From an uncultured Candidatus Actinomarina sp. (GTDB lineage: Bacteria > Actinomycetota > Acidimicrobiia > Actinomarinales > Actinomarinaceae), in assembly GCA_902510965.1 (NCBI GenBank), contig CABXDM010000004.1, forward strand, positions 1-45,477: DNA of 45,477 bases, in the 5' to 3' direction. This document shows positions 14,472-24,470 of the stretch, piece after piece. Numbering within the stretch: position 1 is the stretch's first letter; the number at the start of each line of letters is the position of its first letter. The translations under genes were made by a program, and so were the position numbers. The notes under the pieces are model-generated. The model made no database searches and was not told the DNA's origin. It saw nothing but the letters and a program-made list of their open reading frames with translations.

Positions 14472-16103
<1,632 letters not shown>

Positions 16104-16124
16104 TTACATCAAAAATTTAAAAAT

Positions 16125-16151
16125 GGAGCGGATTTAGGTCCGCTCTTTTTT
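16125..16151 (+). terminator. Intrinsic terminator of groESL
   Basis: GGAGCGGAT-ttag-GTCCGCTCT stem followed by a T-run. Confidence 0.9.
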
Positions 16152-16167
16152 ATAGTAAGCTAAAAAT

Positions 16168-16509
16168 ATGATAGGAATTCGAGGAGCAATTGCTGAGGTA
16201 CAAAATACTTCAGAGAACATTATTCAATCGAGTAAAAATCTTTTTACTGAAATCCTTGAAGTAAATAATTTAGAAATTGATAAAATTATTTCAGTTTTAT
16301 TTACACTTACACATGATTTAACAGAAGCATTCCCAGCTAAAGCACTGAGAGAACTTGGGCATACTACTATTCCCGCAATAGATACTTTAGCTCCAAATAT
16401 AGAACATGACTTAAAGGGTTGCATACGAATATTGGTTCACTACGAAGATAATGTGAATGTTAAACACGTTTATTTAGGAGAAGCTAAAAAACTTCGTCCA
16501 GACCGATAA
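16168..16509 (+). CDS. aroH: Chorismate mutase, AroH class
   Basis: GIRGA (Arg7), DL...FPAKALR, CIR (Arg90), HVYL...KKLRPD; TAAGCT -10 box 6 nt before the ATG. Confidence 0.93.
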   Translation: MIGIRGAIAEVQNTSENIIQSSKNLFTEILEVNNLEIDKIISVLFTLTHDLTEAFPAKALRELGHTTIPAIDTLAPNIEHDLKGCIRILVHYEDNVNVKHVYLGEAKKLRPDR

Positions 16510-16515
16510 AAGTAA

Positions 16516-16543
16516 TTGGCAAAGTGAATAAAGATGGTAAGAT
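16516..16543 (+). promoter_or_regulatory. Promoter of the aro operon (would give a leaderless leader-peptide transcript)
   Basis: TTGGCA (16516-16521), 16 nt spacer, TAAGAT (16538-16543) with extended TGn; ATG 7 nt downstream. Confidence 0.65.
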
Positions 16544-16550
16544 AATCACA

Positions 16551-16595
16551 ATGAAACTAAACAATACTTTTTTTTACTTTAGTGAGCACATATAA
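16551..16595 (+). CDS. Phe/Tyr attenuation leader peptide MKLNNTFFYFSEHI (14 aa)
   Basis: Consecutive TTT TTT TAC TTT codons (16569-16580) overlapping the first attenuator hairpin, upstream of aroF-tyrA...pheA. Confidence 0.85.
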   Translation: MKLNNTFFYFSEHI

Positions 16596-16645
16596 GTTGC
16601 CCTAAAGTTGTGTTGTAATAAATCGGGCAAAAGCCCGATTTTTTT
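16576..16645 (+). terminator. Transcription attenuator (protector / antiterminator / terminator)
   Basis: 1:2 ACTTTAG (16576-16582)/CTAAAGT (16602-16608); 2:3 TTGCCC (16597-16602)/GGGCAA (16625-16630); 3:4 AATCGGGC-AAAA-GCCCGATT followed by a T-run (16621-16645). Confidence 0.88.
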
Positions 16646-16659
16646 ATTTAGGAGAAGAA

Positions 16660-17676
16660 ATGATAATTGTAATGAAACAAGCGGCCTCTGAGGAAGATGT
16701 CGAGAAGGTTAAAAGTAAAGCTATAGAACAAGGTCACGAACCTCTGACTATATTTGGCGTTGAAAGAACTGTCGTCGCCGTGAGTGGGAAAGTTATTGAA
16801 GATAATAGAGCCATTATGAGACTTTTAGATAATGTTCATGAGGTAATTCCTATAGGTAGGCCATACAAGCTAGCAAGCCGCAGTTATAAAGAAGAAAATA
16901 CTCAAATTAAGATCAAGGACTTAATTATCGGAGGAAGTGAGCTGGCTCTTATTGCAGGACCAGACAGTGCAGAAACAAAGGAACAAACTCTTGAAACAGC
17001 TGAGGCTGTTGTAGCTGCAGGAGGTAATGGATTAAGAGGAGGTGCTTTTAAGCCAAGAACATCCCCATATAGCTTTCAAGGATTAGGTGAAGATGGTTTG
17101 AAAATGCTCAAAGAGGCTTCAGATATAAATAACCTTCCTTTATTCAGTGAAATAATGGATACTCAGCATTTATCAATGATGGAAAAATATGTTGATGTTC
17201 TTCAAGTTGGAGCTAGAAACATGCAAAACTTTAAGTTGTTAGAGGCAGTAGGTGAATCTAAGCTACCTGTTCTACTTAAAAGGGGAATGAGTGCAACTTT
17301 AGAAGAACTCTTACTTGCTTCTGAATATATTTTAGCTCGAGGAAATGAAAATGTGATGTTGTGTGAAAGAGGTATAAGAACCTATGAGACAGCAACAAGA
17401 AATACATTTGATGTAAATGCTATACCCTTTCTTAAAATGAACTCACACCTACCAGTTATTGCCGATCCAAGTCATGCAACTGGAGACAGTAAGCTTGTTG
17501 AGCCTGTTGCTCTAGCAGCTATTGCAGCAGGGGCTGACGGACTTTTGATTGAGATTCATCCAAGACCAGATGAAGCTCTTTGTGATGGCCCTCAAGCATT
17601 AGTTCCCACGCAGTTAAATGAGTTAAGCAAAAAAGTTAGCTCTATTGCAAAAGTAGTAGGAAGAACACTTAACTAG
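16660..17676 (+). CDS. aroF: DAHP synthase, type I-beta with N-terminal regulatory (ACT/ferredoxin-like) domain
   Basis: MIIVMK N-terminus, RGGAFKPRTSPYSFQG, GARNMQNF, LKRG, CERGIRT, DPSH. Confidence 0.95.
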   Translation: MIIVMKQAASEEDVEKVKSKAIEQGHEPLTIFGVERTVVAVSGKVIEDNRAIMRLLDNVHEVIPIGRPYKLASRSYKEENTQIKIKDLIIGGSELALIAGPDSAETKEQTLETAEAVVAAGGNGLRGGAFKPRTSPYSFQGLGEDGLKMLKEASDINNLPLFSEIMDTQHLSMMEKYVDVLQVGARNMQNFKLLEAVGESKLPVLLKRGMSATLEELLLASEYILARGNENVMLCERGIRTYETATRNTFDVNAIPFLKMNSHLPVIADPSHATGDSKLVEPVALAAIAAGADGLLIEIHPRPDEALCDGPQALVPTQLNELSKKVSSIAKVVGRTLN

Positions 17677-17678
17677 AA

Positions 17679-18509
17679 ATGAAATCAGTAAGAGTTTATG
17701 GGCTTGGCCTTATGGGAACAAATCTTGGGCTTAAATTACTTAGTAAAGGGATAAAAGTCTACGGTGAGGATGTCAACACTAAATCACTCGAGAGAGCATC
17801 TAACCTGGGAATTGATGTAGCTAATTCATCACAGGCAGTTGATTTGGCTATTCTTGCTATGCCTATAAATAGTATTGTATCAACTCTTAGTTCAGACAAA
17901 TTAATTGCTAATACCAAAGCAATAATTGATATAGGTGGGACAAAGGAGAAGATTTGCAATTTAATGGATAGTTACGAGGTTCCATCAATTGGTGGCCATC
18001 CAATGTGTGGTATTTCGGACAATAGCTCATGGGAACCTGACCCAGAAATTTACAATGGAGCTACATTTTTATTGTGCGAAACCAAGTCAATGGATCCTAC
18101 GTCAAGAGAGATTGTTCTTGAGATGATTCAATTATTAAACTCTAAGGAAGTCTGGATTGATAGAACTCATCATGATGAGATAATTTCGATTACTAGCCAT
18201 CTTCCACACTTAATAAGTACAGCTCTAGTTGGCACTGCTAGAGATAACTATGAGATAAATGAAATTATGGGTATGGCAGCTGGTGGTTTTGACGGAGCTA
18301 CAAGACTTACTAGAACTAATCCTGAGATGATAAAAGACATGTATGACACTAATTCTGAAAATATTAATAAATTCCTTAAATATTTCTTAAGTGAATTAAT
18401 GGAATTAGTTGACCTACAAGAAAGAGATGAACTCATTAGTTATTTAAATAATTCTGTCCATTGGAGAAGGGCATTATCTGACAAATTTGGGGAAAGACCA
18501 CTAAGTTGA
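17679..18509 (+). CDS. tyrA: Prephenate/arogenate dehydrogenase
   Basis: GLGLMG Rossmann motif, GGHPMCG, HDEIISITSHLPH, GGFDGATRL. Confidence 0.93.
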   Translation: MKSVRVYGLGLMGTNLGLKLLSKGIKVYGEDVNTKSLERASNLGIDVANSSQAVDLAILAMPINSIVSTLSSDKLIANTKAIIDIGGTKEKICNLMDSYEVPSIGGHPMCGISDNSSWEPDPEIYNGATFLLCETKSMDPTSREIVLEMIQLLNSKEVWIDRTHHDEIISITSHLPHLISTALVGTARDNYEINEIMGMAAGGFDGATRLTRTNPEMIKDMYDTNSENINKFLKYFLSELMELVDLQERDELISYLNNSVHWRRALSDKFGERPLS

Positions 18510-19783
18510 ATCCTGAAAAAAAGCTTTCAGGTGAAATTTCCCTTATAGGTGATAAGTCAATTTCTCACAGATCTATAATATTTGGATCCATAGCTGAGGG
18601 AGTATCTGAGTTTTCTAATGTTCTAATATCTGGAGATACAACCGCAACTATTGAAATCTTCAACTCTTTAGGCGTAAACATAGAGGTTAAAGAACACAAT
18701 ACTCTCGTTATTCATGGCGTAGGGCTTAACGGTCTATCTAAGTCAAAACAGGCCCTAGATGCAAAAAGTTCAGGAACCACTGCCCGTCTTCTAACAGGTT
18801 TGCTTGCTAGGCAAAACTTTTCCTCAGAGTTGATCGGAAGTAGTCAATTAAGTAAAAGACCAATGGGAAGGGTCATTAATCTTTTAACTGAGCATGGTTC
18901 AGGTATTAAATCTAATGAAGGGTATTTACCAATAAAGTTTGAACAAACAGAATCTGCATTCAACACTATAAATACAATTGTTCCTAGCGCACAGGTAAAA
19001 AGTGCCTTAATTATAGCTTCTTTATATCACCCAGAACCAACTGTAATAACAGAGGACGTTCCCACAAGAGACCATACAGAGAGGATGCTTTCACATATGG
19101 GAGTGGGGTTAGTCAGGATGGGTTCATCTATCACTGTTCCTCCCAACCAGATTTTGAAACCTAGCAGTTTTAGGATACCCTCAGATATATCATCTGCAGC
19201 CTTTCTTATTGCAATAGGTATTTTGTCGTCAGATAAAATAGTTCTCAATAAAGTTCTTATCAATGAAAGGCGTATTGGTTTTCTCAAGATTCTAAAAAGA
19301 ATGAATGCGAACATCACAATTAGCAATATCACTGAAGTTGGAAATGAACTAATAGGCGATATAGAAGTTATTAAGTCAGAATTAATAGCTACACAGATAG
19401 AGCCTGATGAGATTCCCGACCTAATTGATGAGATTCCTTTATTGACCTTTTTAGCATCTCAAGCAGAAGGAGAGACAACTTTGAGAGGTGCCGAGGAGTT
19501 AAGAATAAAAGAATCGGATCGTCTTGAATCTATGAAAGAGTTTATACAAACCCTAAATGGAAAAATTAAAATGTATCCTGATGGATTTAAAATAACAGGG
19601 AAGCAAAATTTAGATGCGGGAGTCATCAAAACAAAAGATGATCATAGGATTTCGATGACAGCTTTAGTAGCTAACTTAACCCTTAGTAAGAAAATCCTTC
19701 CTGATAATATTCAATGTATTAACGATTCGTATCCTTCGTTCTTTGATGATATAAACAAAATAGGTGGTGAGATAATTGAATAA
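18506..19783 (+). CDS. aroA: EPSP synthase
   Basis: GDKSISHR, SGTTARL, RPM, SAQVKSA, RDHTERML, ELRIKESDR, DHR. Confidence 0.97.
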   Translation: MNPEKKLSGEISLIGDKSISHRSIIFGSIAEGVSEFSNVLISGDTTATIEIFNSLGVNIEVKEHNTLVIHGVGLNGLSKSKQALDAKSSGTTARLLTGLLARQNFSSELIGSSQLSKRPMGRVINLLTEHGSGIKSNEGYLPIKFEQTESAFNTINTIVPSAQVKSALIIASLYHPEPTVITEDVPTRDHTERMLSHMGVGLVRMGSSITVPPNQILKPSSFRIPSDISSAAFLIAIGILSSDKIVLNKVLINERRIGFLKILKRMNANITISNITEVGNELIGDIEVIKSELIATQIEPDEIPDLIDEIPLLTFLASQAEGETTLRGAEELRIKESDRLESMKEFIQTLNGKIKMYPDGFKITGKQNLDAGVIKTKDDHRISMTALVANLTLSKKILPDNIQCINDSYPSFFDDINKIGGEIIE

Positions 19784-20561
19784 ATTTGGAGTACTTGGTT
19801 GGCCTCTGACGAATACATTTTCACCACAGATACATGAATTGTTATTTGTTCACACTGGTATTAAAGGTTCTTACAGTTCAATCAGAGAAGAAAATATTAA
19901 TCAAGAAACTATTTTAAAAATAAATCAAGGCTTTGATGGATACAACATTACAATTCCACACAAAGAAAAAATACTGAATTTAGACAATACTGCAATCCTT
20001 AGTAAAAGTGTTTTAGAAATTGGAGCTTGCAATACGGTTTTAATTAAAAATTCAAGAATGTATTTATTCAATACTGACTTTTCTGGCTTTAGGGACTTTC
20101 TAGATATGATTGATCACAACTTTAATAATAAGGAAGTGTTAATTCTTGGTTCTGGTGGAAGTTCAAAGGCAATAGCATATTCTTTAAAACTATTAAATAT
20201 TAAATATCACATCGTAAGTCGATCACTTAGAGATAATACTATTTCATATAATGATGTTCCTAATTTCAGTTCTAAAATAGGAATGGTCATTAACACAACC
20301 CCTGTAGGCATGCCGCCATATGAAAATGCTGAACTACCAATAAAGTGGCATGAATTAGTTAATTTACAAACTGTAATCAATCTCGGTTATGGTCCAGAAA
20401 ATACTTTTTTAAATAATTTTGATGATTCAATCTTAAAATATGATGGATTGGGAATGTTAATCTGTCAGGCTATAGAGTCTTTTAATATATGGACATCTGC
20501 AGCAGTTAGTACAAGTAGTATTTATGGTGAAGTGTTAAATAAATTGGAAGGTGAAAAGTGA
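19776..20561 (+). CDS. aroE: Shikimate dehydrogenase
   Basis: SPQIH, NITIPHKE, GACNT, NTDFSGF, LGSGGS, INTTPVGM, DGLGML..QA. Confidence 0.95.
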   Translation: MNKFGVLGWPLTNTFSPQIHELLFVHTGIKGSYSSIREENINQETILKINQGFDGYNITIPHKEKILNLDNTAILSKSVLEIGACNTVLIKNSRMYLFNTDFSGFRDFLDMIDHNFNNKEVLILGSGGSSKAIAYSLKLLNIKYHIVSRSLRDNTISYNDVPNFSSKIGMVINTTPVGMPPYENAELPIKWHELVNLQTVINLGYGPENTFLNNFDDSILKYDGLGMLICQAIESFNIWTSAAVSTSSIYGEVLNKLEGEK

Positions 20562-21730
20562 TTAGATATCTAACCGCAGGCGAAAGCCACGGACCCGAGT
20601 TAACTGGAATTCTAGAAGGGATACCCGCTGGTTTCAATATTTCGAAAAAATATATAGATAGCTTTTTACAGAGGAGACAAAAAGGTGTTGGTTCCGGGGG
20701 CAGAATGAACATTGAACAGGATGAAGTTTTAATTAGTTCAGGAGTAGTTAATGGAGTTTCTACTGGAGCGCCAATTGCTATACGAATATTAAATAAAGAT
20801 TGGAAAAACTGGAAAGATAAGGATATAGACCCCTATGTAGTACCAAGGCCGGGACATGCAGATTTAGTTGGAACAGCAAAGTATAACCATGAAGATATCA
20901 GATTAGTCTTAGAAAGAGCAAGTGCCAGAGAAACTGCTATGAGAACTGCAATAGGAGCGATTGCAGCAGAGGTTCTGGAAGAACTAGGGATTGAAGTTAC
21001 AGGTTACGTATCAGCAATAGGAGACATCACCTATCAAAATAACATTAAAGATAAAATCGAGAGGGATAAAGTTACAGAGTCTGATGTTGGATGTCCTGAG
21101 ACTGCAACTAGTAAATTGATGGAAGAAGAGATTCTTTCAGCAAGAAAAAATAAGGATACCCTTGGGGGCTCCATAACATGTGTAGCAACAGGAGTTCCAG
21201 CTACAATTGGTAGCTTCGTACACTGGGATAAAAAACTTGATGCAATTCTCGCAAAACAGTTTATGTCTGTTCAAAGTGTAAAGGCTGTCGAGATTGGAAA
21301 AGGAGTTGATATTGCTAAAAAATTTGGTACAGAAGTTCAAGATCAATACTCTCTAGATGGAAAAAAAATAACCAAGATTTCGAATAACCTCGGAGGTTTT
21401 GAGGGAGGTATGACAAATGGTGAAGAATTACACATCACGGCATATTTAAAACCAATTAGCACTACTTTAACCCCGATAAGCAGCATAGATTTAGCCGAAA
21501 AAATTGAAACTGAAACAGTCTATGAACGTTCTGATACATGTGCTGTGCCAAGAGCTATACCAATATTTGAAGCAATCATGGCATTTGAAATATTAAATAA
21601 CCTATTAATCAAAACAGGAGGAGATCATAAAAAAGAAATAACTCAAAGTTTCAACAACATTCCGAAACTTGAAATTGACGAATTCGAGATAAAAAATGAA
21701 TTATGGAGTATGAAATACGATGTCGAGTAA
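20558..21730 (+). CDS. aroC: Chorismate synthase
   Basis: TAGESHG, PRPGHAD, ERASARETA, NNLGGFEGG, KPIST, ERSD. Confidence 0.98.
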   Translation: MIRYLTAGESHGPELTGILEGIPAGFNISKKYIDSFLQRRQKGVGSGGRMNIEQDEVLISSGVVNGVSTGAPIAIRILNKDWKNWKDKDIDPYVVPRPGHADLVGTAKYNHEDIRLVLERASARETAMRTAIGAIAAEVLEELGIEVTGYVSAIGDITYQNNIKDKIERDKVTESDVGCPETATSKLMEEEILSARKNKDTLGGSITCVATGVPATIGSFVHWDKKLDAILAKQFMSVQSVKAVEIGKGVDIAKKFGTEVQDQYSLDGKKITKISNNLGGFEGGMTNGEELHITAYLKPISTTLTPISSIDLAEKIETETVYERSDTCAVPRAIPIFEAIMAFEILNNLLIKTGGDHKKEITQSFNNIPKLEIDEFEIKNELWSMKYDVE

Positions 21731-22232
21731 TACAGCTTTTTTAGTTGGGTTTATGGGTTCTGGAAAATCTTCTATTTTAAATATCTTAAAACTGAATACA
21801 GAAATTCATACTATTGACTTAGATGACTTTGTATTAAGCGAAAGTAAAGATGATTTAGAAAGTATTGAGCAATTGTTTGAAAAACACGGAGAGGAATATT
21901 TTAGAGACTGTGAAGTTAAAGCTTTTCAGAAAATTTATCAAAATCCCAACACAGTGGTTTCTCTTGGTGGAGGATCGATGATATCTAGCCCTATTAAATC
22001 TGCGGTATTAAAATCCGAACGTGCTTTTTACTTAAAAAATGAATTTGAAAATCTATGGAAAAATATTAAAGACAGTAAAAGACCGTTAGTAACTACCGGA
22101 AAAGATAATGTAATGAAAATTTATCTTGATAGACTTCATACATATAAGCACTGTAAAAATACAATCGACATGTCTAAACATAGTCTTCAAGAAGCTTCAG
22201 AAATCATCATCAAGCGACTAGGTTGGGTATAA
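21720..22232 (+). CDS. aroK: Shikimate kinase
   Basis: GFMGSGKS, DLD, GEEYFR, SLGGG, RPL. Confidence 0.93.
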   Translation: MSSNTAFLVGFMGSGKSSILNILKLNTEIHTIDLDDFVLSESKDDLESIEQLFEKHGEEYFRDCEVKAFQKIYQNPNTVVSLGGGSMISSPIKSAVLKSERAFYLKNEFENLWKNIKDSKRPLVTTGKDNVMKIYLDRLHTYKHCKNTIDMSKHSLQEASEIIIKRLGWV

Positions 22233-22233
22233 A

Positions 22234-23241
22234 TTGCAAGAATCAAATGTCCAATACTTTAAAAACTTAAATGAATTACTGATTTATTGTGATAAATTAA
22301 CCGAGGACAAAATCTCTAGGACCTACATTGATAAACAAGTTTTAGTTAAATTTCCGCAACTTAAAAAATTTTCCAAAGAATTTAAAGAGATTGAAATTAA
22401 AGAAGATAAAAAAAATCTAGATACTGTATCAAAAATTTGGGAAGATATGTTTGAGAAGTCCATACAAAGAAGTTCAACTGTCTTATGCATCGGGGGAGGA
22501 GCATTATCCGATGCTGTTGGATTTGCTTCAAGTACATATAAAAGAGGTACTGGACTTGTAATAATCCCTACAACACTTTTATCAATGGTTGATGCTGCAC
22601 ACGGTGGAAAAAATGGAATTAATACTACACACGGAAAAAATCAAATTGGAACTTTTATGATGCCTGATCAGGTATTAATCTGCCCAGAGTTTTTAGGAGA
22701 ACTACCAGAAAAACAAATTAAAAATGGGTTGATTGAATTAATCAAAGCAGGATTCTTAAAGAGTCCTGAATTAGTTCAACAGGTTTATGAGACCGATATC
22801 TCGAAAGTTAATATCGAACTTATAAAAGCAGCAGTAGACATTAAAAACGAAATAATAAAAAATGACTTTAAAGAAAGTTCTGAGAGAATGTATTTAAACT
22901 TTGGTCATACTATTGGACATCTAATTGAGGTAGATTCCAAACATAGTATTCCCCACGGCGAAGCAGTAGGTATAGGAATTTTAAAAGCCCTAAAAATATC
23001 GGAAAAAATGTGTAATTTAGATAAAAATATTTCTGACCATTTTGAAAATTTTCTAAAAAAGTTAGACCTTAATGTAGATTATAAGTTTAGTAGTAATCCA
23101 GAACAGCTTAAAGAATTATTGTTTAATGATAAAAAATTTTCTAAGGATATTGTGAAGTACGTTCTTCTTGAAAATATTGGAAATCCAGTTTTAGTTGATT
23201 TCAACTTAAATGATTTACTTAACGAGGTAACCTATGCATAA
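22234..23241 (+). CDS. aroB: 3-dehydroquinate synthase
   Basis: GGGALSD, PTTLLSMVDA..GGKNG, KNQIG, LNFGHTIGH, HGEAV, DKK. Confidence 0.96.
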   Translation: MQESNVQYFKNLNELLIYCDKLTEDKISRTYIDKQVLVKFPQLKKFSKEFKEIEIKEDKKNLDTVSKIWEDMFEKSIQRSSTVLCIGGGALSDAVGFASSTYKRGTGLVIIPTTLLSMVDAAHGGKNGINTTHGKNQIGTFMMPDQVLICPEFLGELPEKQIKNGLIELIKAGFLKSPELVQQVYETDISKVNIELIKAAVDIKNEIIKNDFKESSERMYLNFGHTIGHLIEVDSKHSIPHGEAVGIGILKALKISEKMCNLDKNISDHFENFLKKLDLNVDYKFSSNPEQLKELLFNDKKFSKDIVKYVLLENIGNPVLVDFNLNDLLNEVTYA

Positions 23242-23665
23242 AATACTTGTGGTTAATGGTCCAAATATTAATATGTTAGGAATTAGAGAGCTAGATAAGT
23301 ATGGAAAAACTTCTTATCAAGAACTAAAGGACATCATACAAGATTATTCGATTGATAAATTTCATCTAGAAACCTATCAATCAAACGTTGAAGGGGAAAT
23401 TGTATCAAAGCTTCATAAAGCAATAGAAGAGGATATAGACGGCCTAATAATTAACCCAGGAGCATATACACATACCAGTATTGCAATTAGAGATGCGCTA
23501 GCGATACTTAAGATACCCTCAATTGAAGTACACATTAGTAATATAAAAAACAGGGAAGATTTTAGACAAGTAAACTTAATATCAGATTTTTGTGATTTGA
23601 CTATCACTGGAAAAGGTATCGATGGCTATATCGAGGCAATCGATTATTTATATGAAAAATATTAA
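23234..23665 (+). CDS. aroQ: Type II 3-dehydroquinate dehydratase
   Basis: NGPNINMLG.RE..YG, QSNVEG, INPGAYTHTS, EVHISN..REDFR. Confidence 0.96.
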   Translation: MHKILVVNGPNINMLGIRELDKYGKTSYQELKDIIQDYSIDKFHLETYQSNVEGEIVSKLHKAIEEDIDGLIINPGAYTHTSIAIRDALAILKIPSIEVHISNIKNREDFRQVNLISDFCDLTITGKGIDGYIEAIDYLYEKY

Positions 23666-24470
23666 TAAAATATATTATCAAGGCTCAAAAGGTTCTTATT
23701 CAGAGTCTGTTTTAAAAAGCTATTTTCCTAATAAGCAATACGTTGAATGTCAGACTTTCAGAGAGGTTGTTGCCCAGGCGGGTGAAGATAATTATGGTTT
23801 ACTCCCTGTTGAAAATTCACTGGTAGGGACTGTTGTAGATTCTTACGAAAATTTAATTCAGAGTGAATTAAATGTGTACGGAGAGTTCAAGAAAAAAATT
23901 ACACACGCACTTATCGGATTAAAAAATTCAAAAATTGAAAATATTGAAAGAGTTATTTCTCATCCACAAGCTCTTCAGCAATGTAGCAACTTTTTACAAG
24001 ACATGAATGTACAACTTCAACCAGTTTTTGATACAGCTGGAAGTGTCTTAAGTTTATTAGATGAAGAATCTGAAACTATCGCTGGAATTGCAGGGGAGCA
24101 TTTTGAAGATGATCATCGTTTTAAAGTTCTAAAAAAAAGCATTTCAAATCATGTAGAAAACTATACTCGTTTCTTTCTTGTCGGGGATCAAGATCCTAAT
24201 CTTGAGGTATCTAAAAATAAAAGATCCGCAATATTGATAGCAGATGACAAGCCTGGCTCATTACTCTCTGCTCTGAAAATATTTGAGGAGACTAACGTTA
24301 ATTTAACAAAATTAGAATCTAGGCCGATCATTGGAAGTCCGTGGGAGTATAAATTTTATATTGATTACCAAAACTCTGTTGCTGATATTGATACTCAATT
24401 GAAAGATAAATTAGATTTGGTAACAAAAAAGTTTAAAATAATAGGTAGATACGGAACTATTGACCTTTAA
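23652..24470 (+). CDS. pheA: Prephenate dehydratase with ACT domain (probable ATG start at 23652)
   Basis: LPVENS..G, SHPQALQQC, NYTRF, PGSL, NLTKLESRP, YKFYID. Confidence 0.95.
   Translation: MKNINKIYYQGSKGSYSESVLKSYFPNKQYVECQTFREVVAQAGEDNYGLLPVENSLVGTVVDSYENLIQSELNVYGEFKKKITHALIGLKNSKIENIERVISHPQALQQCSNFLQDMNVQLQPVFDTAGSVLSLLDEESETIAGIAGEHFEDDHRFKVLKKSISNHVENYTRFFLVGDQDPNLEVSKNKRSAILIADDKPGSLLSALKIFEETNVNLTKLESRPIIGSPWEYKFYIDYQNSVADIDTQLKDKLDLVTKKFKIIGRYGTIDL

Follow-up and report, generated by a model that had tools for sequence, protein, structure and literature searches.

The 150-nucleotide (nt) spacer between aroH and aroF of an uncultured Candidatus Actinomarina sp. very probably holds, as judged from its sequence and its modelled folds, a leaderless, ribosome-mediated transcription attenuator with a phenylalanine/tyrosine (Phe/Tyr) leader peptide, placed before a nine-gene operon. 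The whole element lies within this spacer, in a stretch of 45,477 nt (the window; contig CABXDM010000004.1, positions 1 to 45,477 of the forward strand, GenBank assembly GCA_902510965.1). The sequence parts of the element, their conservation and their alternative folds in silico were observed directly. The switch is of a classical kind; it is new for the Actinomarina lineage and not a new kind of switch. Candidatus Actinomarina, which is uncultured, ranks with the smallest and most abundant of the free-living actinobacteria in the sea; the source assembly has 0.81 megabases (Mb), a guanine and cytosine (GC) content of 34% and 67% completeness.

Architecture of the aro leader

The element and the genes behind it are made up as follows.

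16516..16543, + strand: promoter (consensus scan), with a -35-like TTGGCA (16516-16521), a 16-nt spacer and an extended -10 TGgTAAGAT (16535-16543) made of TG (16535-16536) and TAAGAT (16538-16543)
16551..16595, + strand: leader open reading frame (ORF) MKLNNTFFYFSEHI, 14 codons, from ATG (16551) to TAA (16593-16595), read from the sequence
16569..16580, + strand: control codons TTT TTT TAC TTT (Phe-Phe-Tyr-Phe), codons 7-10 of the leader
16561..16582, + strand: region 1, with outer arm ACAATAC (16561-16567) and core arm ACTTTAG (16576-16582), from the minimum free energy (MFE) fold
16597..16616, + strand: region 2, with TTGCCC (16597-16602), CTAAAGT (16602-16608) and GTGTTGT (16610-16616), from the MFE fold and three-state folding
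16620..16641, + strand: regions 3 and 4, the stem-loop of the intrinsic terminator AAATCGGGC-AAAA-GCCCGATTT, with its T run to 16645 (terminator scan)
16650..16662, + strand: AGGAG Shine-Dalgarno (SD) sequence (16650-16654) and aroF ATG (16660), read from the sequence
16660-17676, + strand: aroF, 3-deoxy-D-arabino-heptulosonate 7-phosphate (DAHP) synthase with an N-terminal ferredoxin-like domain (Pfam DAHP_synth_1, E 2.1e-73)
16660..24470, + strand: operon aroF-tyrA-aroA-aroE-aroC-aroK-aroB-aroQ-pheA (ORF coordinates; Pfam matches for 9/9)

The leader ATG lies 7 nt after the -10 with no purine-rich SD between them, and the leader ORF is probably translated from an mRNA that is leaderless or has a 1-nt leader. 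As in trpL/pheL-type leaders, a short ORF with codons for the product amino acids (three Phe and one Tyr in the control run) precedes an operon, which here holds tyrA and pheA. The protector (1:2) pairing joins 16576-16582 to 16602-16608 and is extended by 16561-16567 with 16610-16616; its core arm in region 1 overlaps the Tyr-Phe control codons. The antiterminator pairing joins TTGCCC (16597-16602) to GGGCAA (16625-16630) in the 5' arm of the terminator. The terminator has a 9-base-pair (bp) stem with five G-C pairs, an AAAA loop and seven T; it ends 14 nt 5' of the aroF ATG. As in an attenuator, it follows the leader ORF and precedes the first structural gene. One nt separates the TAA from TTGCCC and three separate it from GCCC, a placement at which a ribosome terminating there would cover region 2. 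All coordinates and pairings proposed in the initial annotation of this DNA (ORF, protector, antiterminator and terminator) held when the sequence was read again. Its claim of nine genes including the common chorismate pathway likewise agreed with ORF coordinates and Pfam matches; adjacent genes of the operon either overlap or have gaps of no more than 2 nt, and the block stops at 24470, facing a convergent gene.

From this layout we infer where transcription starts, that the leader is translated, that ribosomes stall on it and which amino acid or amino acids are relevant. RNA polymerase would start at the leader AUG or 1 nt before it (approximately 16550-16551), and a 70S ribosome would translate the 14-codon leader without an SD. 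With Phe-tRNA and Tyr-tRNA in ample supply, the ribosome would reach the UAA (16593-16595) and cover TTGCCC; the terminator and its U run would then form and transcription would stop before aroF. When no ribosome is loaded, the 1:2 hairpin (16561-16616) would sequester TTGCCC and termination would again result. A shortage of charged Phe- or Tyr-tRNA would make the ribosome stall on codons 7-10, masking region 1 and leaving TTGCCC free to pair with GGGCAA once this is made; the 5' arm of the terminator would be withheld and polymerase would read into aroF-tyrA-aroAECKBQ-pheA.

Conservation among Actinomarina relatives

Sixty-six Actinomarina aroF loci, 18 and 48 from two overlapping sources, gave 44 distinct upstream sequences. 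A leader ORF with an aromatic run was present in 44/44, and the alignment of relatives thus bore out the F/Y codons of the window. The run is [F/Y]-F-Y-F, with Y-F-F-Y-F in the most divergent locus (L108) as the sole exception. Codon 7 switches between TTT and TAC/TAT and is always aromatic, the last three positions of the run are F-Y-F in all 44 sequences, and the codons flanking the run vary freely (T/V/A/S; S/R/G; E/A/L). Most relatives have Y-F-Y-F, i.e. two Tyr and two Phe codons. TGnTAnnnT stands 6-8 nt before every leader ATG (7 nt in 31 sequences, 8 nt in 12 and 6 nt in 1); an SD-like motif was found 5' of the leader ORF in 0/44, and AGGAG or GAGGA 5' of aroF in 44/44. The arrangement described for the window, a leader ORF shortly after an extended -10 and lacking an SD, is kept in its relatives, and promoter spacing, aromatic run and terminator were all retained in every sequence.

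A covariance model (R1) built from 33 distinct aro leaders was searched against 65 genomes of the family, which equals the order in this genome set; 54 of them each had a single strong copy, scoring 72.8-118 bits. The strong copy always adjoined aroF in the loci read, and the window gave one real match. Six genomes lacked an aroF match: five (G005, G008, G012, G017 and G019) were without a strong copy and one (G023) had one, the genome sets being partly overlapping. In G008 (87% complete, 7 contigs) neither an aroF match nor an aro leader was found and a Trp-type leader (see below) was present; this genome may have undergone a lineage-specific loss of the aromatic operon. In a more distant Acidimicrobiia genome (L020), aroH and aroF are adjacent with a spacer of approximately 58 nt and no leader. 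To judge by this one genome, aroH and aroF were apparently neighbours before the attenuator was inserted between them.

Predicted three-state folding

The MFE of the 117-nt leader was -26.3 kcal/mol, compared to -16.7 ± 3.1 kcal/mol in 200 shuffles (z -3.1; 1/200 as good). Folding was then carried out on 34 distinct aro leaders, the ribosome being simulated by masking. At full length without a mask, the 1:2 hairpin and the terminator formed in 34/34 leaders. With the mask reaching 10 nt past the last aromatic codon and the 3' arm of the terminator absent, the GCCC:GGGC antiterminator formed in 34/34 (-5.8 to -10.7 kcal/mol). With the ribosome mask at the stop codon, the best structure was no lower than -4.1 kcal/mol and held no antiterminator. 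Three nt separate the stop codon from GCCC in all but one of the 34 leaders; in that one, L108, stop codon and GCCC overlap by 1 nt. Antiterminator and terminator are thus predicted to be mutually exclusive, and the modelled folds reproduce the three states of a trpL/pheL-type attenuator, in agreement with the trpL/pheL geometry proposed at the outset.

Covariation and points against the attenuator

Pairing was counted in an alignment of 33 sequences (A2). The core 1:2 helix was paired in 97%, the outer helix in 68% with four pairs changed on both sides, and the terminator in 99.7%; the antiterminator strand GCCC was invariant in 33/33 rows. The divergent L108 carries two compensatory changes in the core 1:2 helix (ATTTTGG with CCGAAAT) and one in the terminator (T-A to G-C). 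Native 5' and 3' halves folded better than permuted chimeras: 0/10,000 were as low with 32 regions, and 17/10,000 with 11 clade representatives. The outermost antiterminator pair is T-A in 21/34 aro leaders and a C.A mismatch in 10/34; most of the Trp- and Val-type sister leaders described below have G-C at this position, and one Trp-type leader has C-G. In the sequences compared, the outer antiterminator pair thus does covary across two sister leader types of the genus. The search for hairpin covariation was therefore borne out in part, by the compensatory changes of L108 and by this outer pair; the score within the aro family was near that of shuffled alignments.

Several results weigh against the attenuator. 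The covariation score within the family was 0.063 vs. 0.059 when shuffled (126/500 as high), a weakness explained by the element being nearly invariant; RNAalifold and the counts of pairs among aro leaders speak neither for nor against the fold. The antiterminator showed no covariation within this family, having four invariant and two eroding pairs, and it is reduced to 5 bp in 10/34 leaders and to 4 bp in 3/34. It is also thermodynamically less stable than the terminator, and with the mask at the first aromatic codon it formed in 29/34 leaders, the remaining 5/34 favouring another small hairpin. Two species (L062 and L063) have CTTTAGT for CTAAAGT, which puts two U.U mismatches into the core 1:2 helix, and their 5' arm has no compensating change. 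The chimera test is inflated by relatedness and driven largely by L108. The conserved TAC and TTT nucleotides are also shared with the 1:2 helix, whose structure could account for some of the codon conservation. Finally, the Rfam family Phe_leader (RF01859) matched 16550-16647 with 19.7 bits (E 2.2) and did not reach its gathering threshold of 55; the element is therefore not a member of that family.

Chance origin and specificity

Phe and Tyr make up 8.4% of codons genome-wide and the commonest Phe codon is TTT. A T-rich stretch arising by chance, which the initial annotation had named as what would refute its reading, does not account for a run kept in 44/44 relatives. At least four consecutive F/Y codons occurred in just 2 of 675 intergenic ATG ORFs of 8-30 codons in the 0.81-Mb assembly. 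The second of these, MYRIFKKKYFYFLLVYK (G000:C8:5570-5652), between topA and a transporter-like gene, was set aside as probably due to chance because it lacks a terminator and stands before a transporter-like gene. A strict scan of the whole genome for the architecture (TGnTAnnnT, 5-9 nt, ATG, 6-25 codons and a perfect GC-rich terminator within 90 nt) returned two sites, the aro leader and a sister leader before aceA. A chance origin of the element is excluded.

A cruder genome scan near gene starts found, besides the aro element, only ordinary terminators and one false lead; owing to its distance rule it missed the aceA and Trp-type leaders. The false lead, a supposed 'MLLLKS' attenuator, was rejected, as it lies inside the leuA coding sequence. 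Among 30 distant aroF homologue loci (Chloroflexota, Planctomycetia and others), six of them with an upstream GC content of at most 0.35, no convincing aromatic-run leader was found. The element therefore did not travel with the aroF enzyme type in those loci.

Sister leaders and the Trp branch

R1, a model of aro leaders only, also matched other loci of the genus (30-43 bits). Leaders of a Trp type, leaderless and with the consensus MKN[IV]T[NS][LW]NWW[ST][ST]T, stand before a 451-amino-acid PALP enzyme with a TrpB2-like N-terminus (L123, L125, L126 and L130-L132). In G011 (L124/L128) such a leader precedes a 744-amino-acid protein with a PEP-utilisers mobile domain. The genome of the window has a diverged Trp-type leader, MYKVNNWHWILHR (L140 = G000:C5:28500-29100), which is apparently an orphan with no same-strand gene downstream. 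Leaders of a Val type were read as MQKLNVVQVVVYIHM in relatives (L129, L133, L135, L136 and L138) and as MKINNAVQVVSYIHM in the genome of the window (L139 = G000:C12:6500-8300). They carry a GTGCCC/GGGCAC switch and a terminator, and are followed by a conserved micro-ORF of approximately 30-40 codons, isocitrate lyase (aceA) and malate synthase (aceB).

The aro, Trp and Val types agree in the distance from promoter to ATG, in where the codon run sits, in xTGCCC and in the CGGGCA..GCCCG terminator. Like the aro leader, the sister leaders run from TGnTAnnnT over 6-7 nt (in those read) to the ATG, approximately 13-15 codons, xTGCCC, a spacer, CGGGCAx..GCCCG and a T run; they differ from it in having W-N-W-W or V-V-Q-V-V-V in place of the F/Y run and in their targets, the Val-type target, unlike the aro operon, not being amino-acid biosynthesis. 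The shared scaffold supports codon sensing as the likely working principle and suggests a duplicated module.

The Trp branch was searched for in five Actinomarina genomes (G000, G009, G042, G077 and G011), of which one is assembled in a single contig and another in two. Neither Chorismate_bind (TrpE/PabB/MenF type) nor IGPS (TrpC) turned up in any of them (0/5), and the same searches were positive in 14/14 control genomes. These five genomes appear to lack both a de novo Trp branch and any enzyme of the PabB or MenF type, and chorismate seems to feed Phe and Tyr only. If so, a Phe/Tyr sensor could govern the entire shikimate pathway at no cost, and Trp codons would not be needed in the leader. 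A Trp codon is indeed absent from the aro leader, as the initial annotation had pointed out; its absence is not odd, since no Trp branch was found in 5/5 genomes.

It is tentatively proposed, as a possibility that falls somewhat short of probable, that one leaderless module, duplicated and re-coded (F/Y for the aro operon, W for a lone trpB2-like gene, Val for aceA-aceB), built much of a small regulatory repertoire, with the aro copy acting as a true dual Phe and Tyr sensor over a shikimate pathway without other branches.

Alternative explanations

A ribosome-dependent attenuator might read Phe and Tyr unequally, responding to Phe only, as reported for Corynebacterium glutamicum aroR, or to general translation capacity. 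Transcription of the C. glutamicum aroF operon is reported to rise under Phe limitation, with Tyr having no effect (PMC11802643), and the leader in the window has three Phe codons to one Tyr codon. We consider unequal reading rather unlikely, as the leaders of most relatives hold Tyr and Phe codons in equal number (two each) and the operon includes both tyrA and pheA, which speak against Phe-only sensing, and codon 7, exchanged between F and Y, seems able to work as either. The dual sensing of Phe and Tyr put forward in the initial annotation is likewise an inference.

The very strong nucleotide conservation extends to non-coding parts of the element, and such conservation alone is no proof of translation; the region could then be a riboswitch-like RNA, or one that binds a protein or tRNA (a T-box, TRAP-like or Phe/Tyr-binding element), with an untranslated ORF. 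Such an element is very improbable here. Under permissive settings, no Rfam family reached its threshold in 15900-17200; the top scores, 22.5 bits for Ref84 and then that of Phe_leader, lie far below gathering. At approximately 95 nt the element is too short for a T-box. Its variable positions respect the reading frame, and the aromatic-to-aromatic changes fall in a segment that is unpaired in the fold of the window. Where the scaffold has its codon run, the sister elements show W-N-W-W ahead of a trpB2-like gene, as codon sensing predicts.

Scarcely credible is a hairpin that merely forms the 3' terminator of the aroH (or groESL-aroH) transcript beside a constitutive promoter, the ORF being a T-rich by-product: the terminator does lie 111 nt past the aroH stop codon with no other terminator after aroH, and a 34% GC genome with TTT as its commonest Phe codon favours such by-products, but the promoter is 5' of the terminator, so its transcripts must pass it, ORF, frame and aromatic run are kept in 44/44 with F/Y exchange at codon 7, and such a run is found in just 2/675 small intergenic ORFs and at none of the 30 distant aroF loci. 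Ending aroH transcripts as well may be one role of the terminator, yet it leaves the rest unexplained.

Relation to known attenuators

The initial annotation had held that actinobacterial attenuators are known mostly for trp, leu, ilv and cys genes. This background is outdated; it overlooked C. glutamicum aroR, a leader peptide with F-Y-F before aroF (DAHP synthase) that has been read as ribosome-mediated attenuation (PMC11802643; PMC4046766, Mentz et al. 2013; PMC7356990; PMC3890552). Judged by comparison with the published descriptions available, the aroR-aroF attenuator is the closest known system. Both are actinobacterial Phe/Tyr leaders directly before a DAHP synthase gene, and the F-Y-F of aroR is contained in the F-F-Y-F of the window; this likeness is judged by the description of the motif, and the Actinomarina run is four codons long ([F/Y]-F-Y-F). 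The Actinomarina unit also differs in comprising nine genes including tyrA and pheA, from DAHP to the prephenate products, and in its host, a marine Acidimicrobiia bacterium of approximately 1 Mb and 34% GC.

With E. coli pheL-pheA and trpL, the element shares control codons in region 1, a stop codon just before region 2, a 2:3 antiterminator alternating with a 3:4 terminator, and a U run before the first structural gene (PMC11802643). Unlike E. coli pheL, the Actinomarina leader mixes Phe and Tyr codons, lacks an SD and has its predicted start at the 5' end of the mRNA; unlike pheL-pheA, the element would control pheA together with the shikimate pathway.

Leaderless leader peptides have been described for Streptomyces and Corynebacterium (PMC8079986, PMC5784534), namely trpL, leuL, ilvL and others in S. 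lividans (PMC8079986) and the ilvB leader in C. diphtheriae (PMC5784534). The likeness to these lies in a leader gene at the transcription start, with no ribosome-binding site, followed by hairpins and a U-rich tract; the difference lies in the amino acids sensed, which are Trp, Leu, Ile/Val, Ala, Met or Thr, a leader for Phe/Tyr being absent from the available portions of these reports (PMC8079986, PMC5784534). Seliverstov et al. 2005 reported that, among the Actinobacteria available at that time, Phe and Tyr genes were not preceded by any RNA element (PMC1262725), in line with the background given in the initial annotation. A literature search, with supplements outside its scope, found no paper on attenuators, leader peptides or riboswitches in Actinomarina or Actinomarinales.

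Upstream neighbourhood and metatranscriptome contigs

The gene on the other side of the spacer is aroH, which is the immediate upstream neighbour in every relative read.

16168..16509, + strand: aroH, AroH-type chorismate mutase (Pfam CM_1, E 2.5e-34)

It sits 5' of the attenuator promoter, hence it is not part of the attenuated unit. The groEL terminator lies at 16125-16146 and aroH begins 21 nt after it; a TATAGT box (16151-16156) stands 11 nt 5' of the aroH ATG and there is no SD. The gene may be transcribed and translated through read-through of the groEL terminator or from a very short leader.

Twenty sequencing runs hold the stretch, 9 of them recorded as RNA; four RNA runs from two studies, all of them in the form of assembled contigs, were compared. 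Upstream contigs ended at 16571-16617 and downstream ones started at 16580-16588, with overlaps of approximately k-1. These breaks were rejected as RNA ends, as k-1 overlaps reflect graph branching at strain variants. The contigs of the four runs carried C-to-T at 16557 (synonymous in the leader, CTA to TTA, as in relatives) and an extra T after 16145, in the T run of the groEL terminator; C-to-T at 16503 was present in three of the four. All three are strain variants.

Significance

The element leaves the understanding of attenuation itself unchanged. With it, a class without a matching Rfam model gains a Phe/Tyr leader that is well conserved, and the ratio of reads before and after 16645 offers a testable read-out of Phe/Tyr limitation in ocean metatranscriptomes. 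If the duplicated module is real, codon-sensing attenuation would extend from amino-acid biosynthesis to central carbon metabolism. For the organism, the whole Phe/Tyr route of a streamlined marine bacterium would be gated by one codon-sensing switch of approximately 100 nt, which would illustrate regulation without protein regulators in genome-streamlined bacteria.

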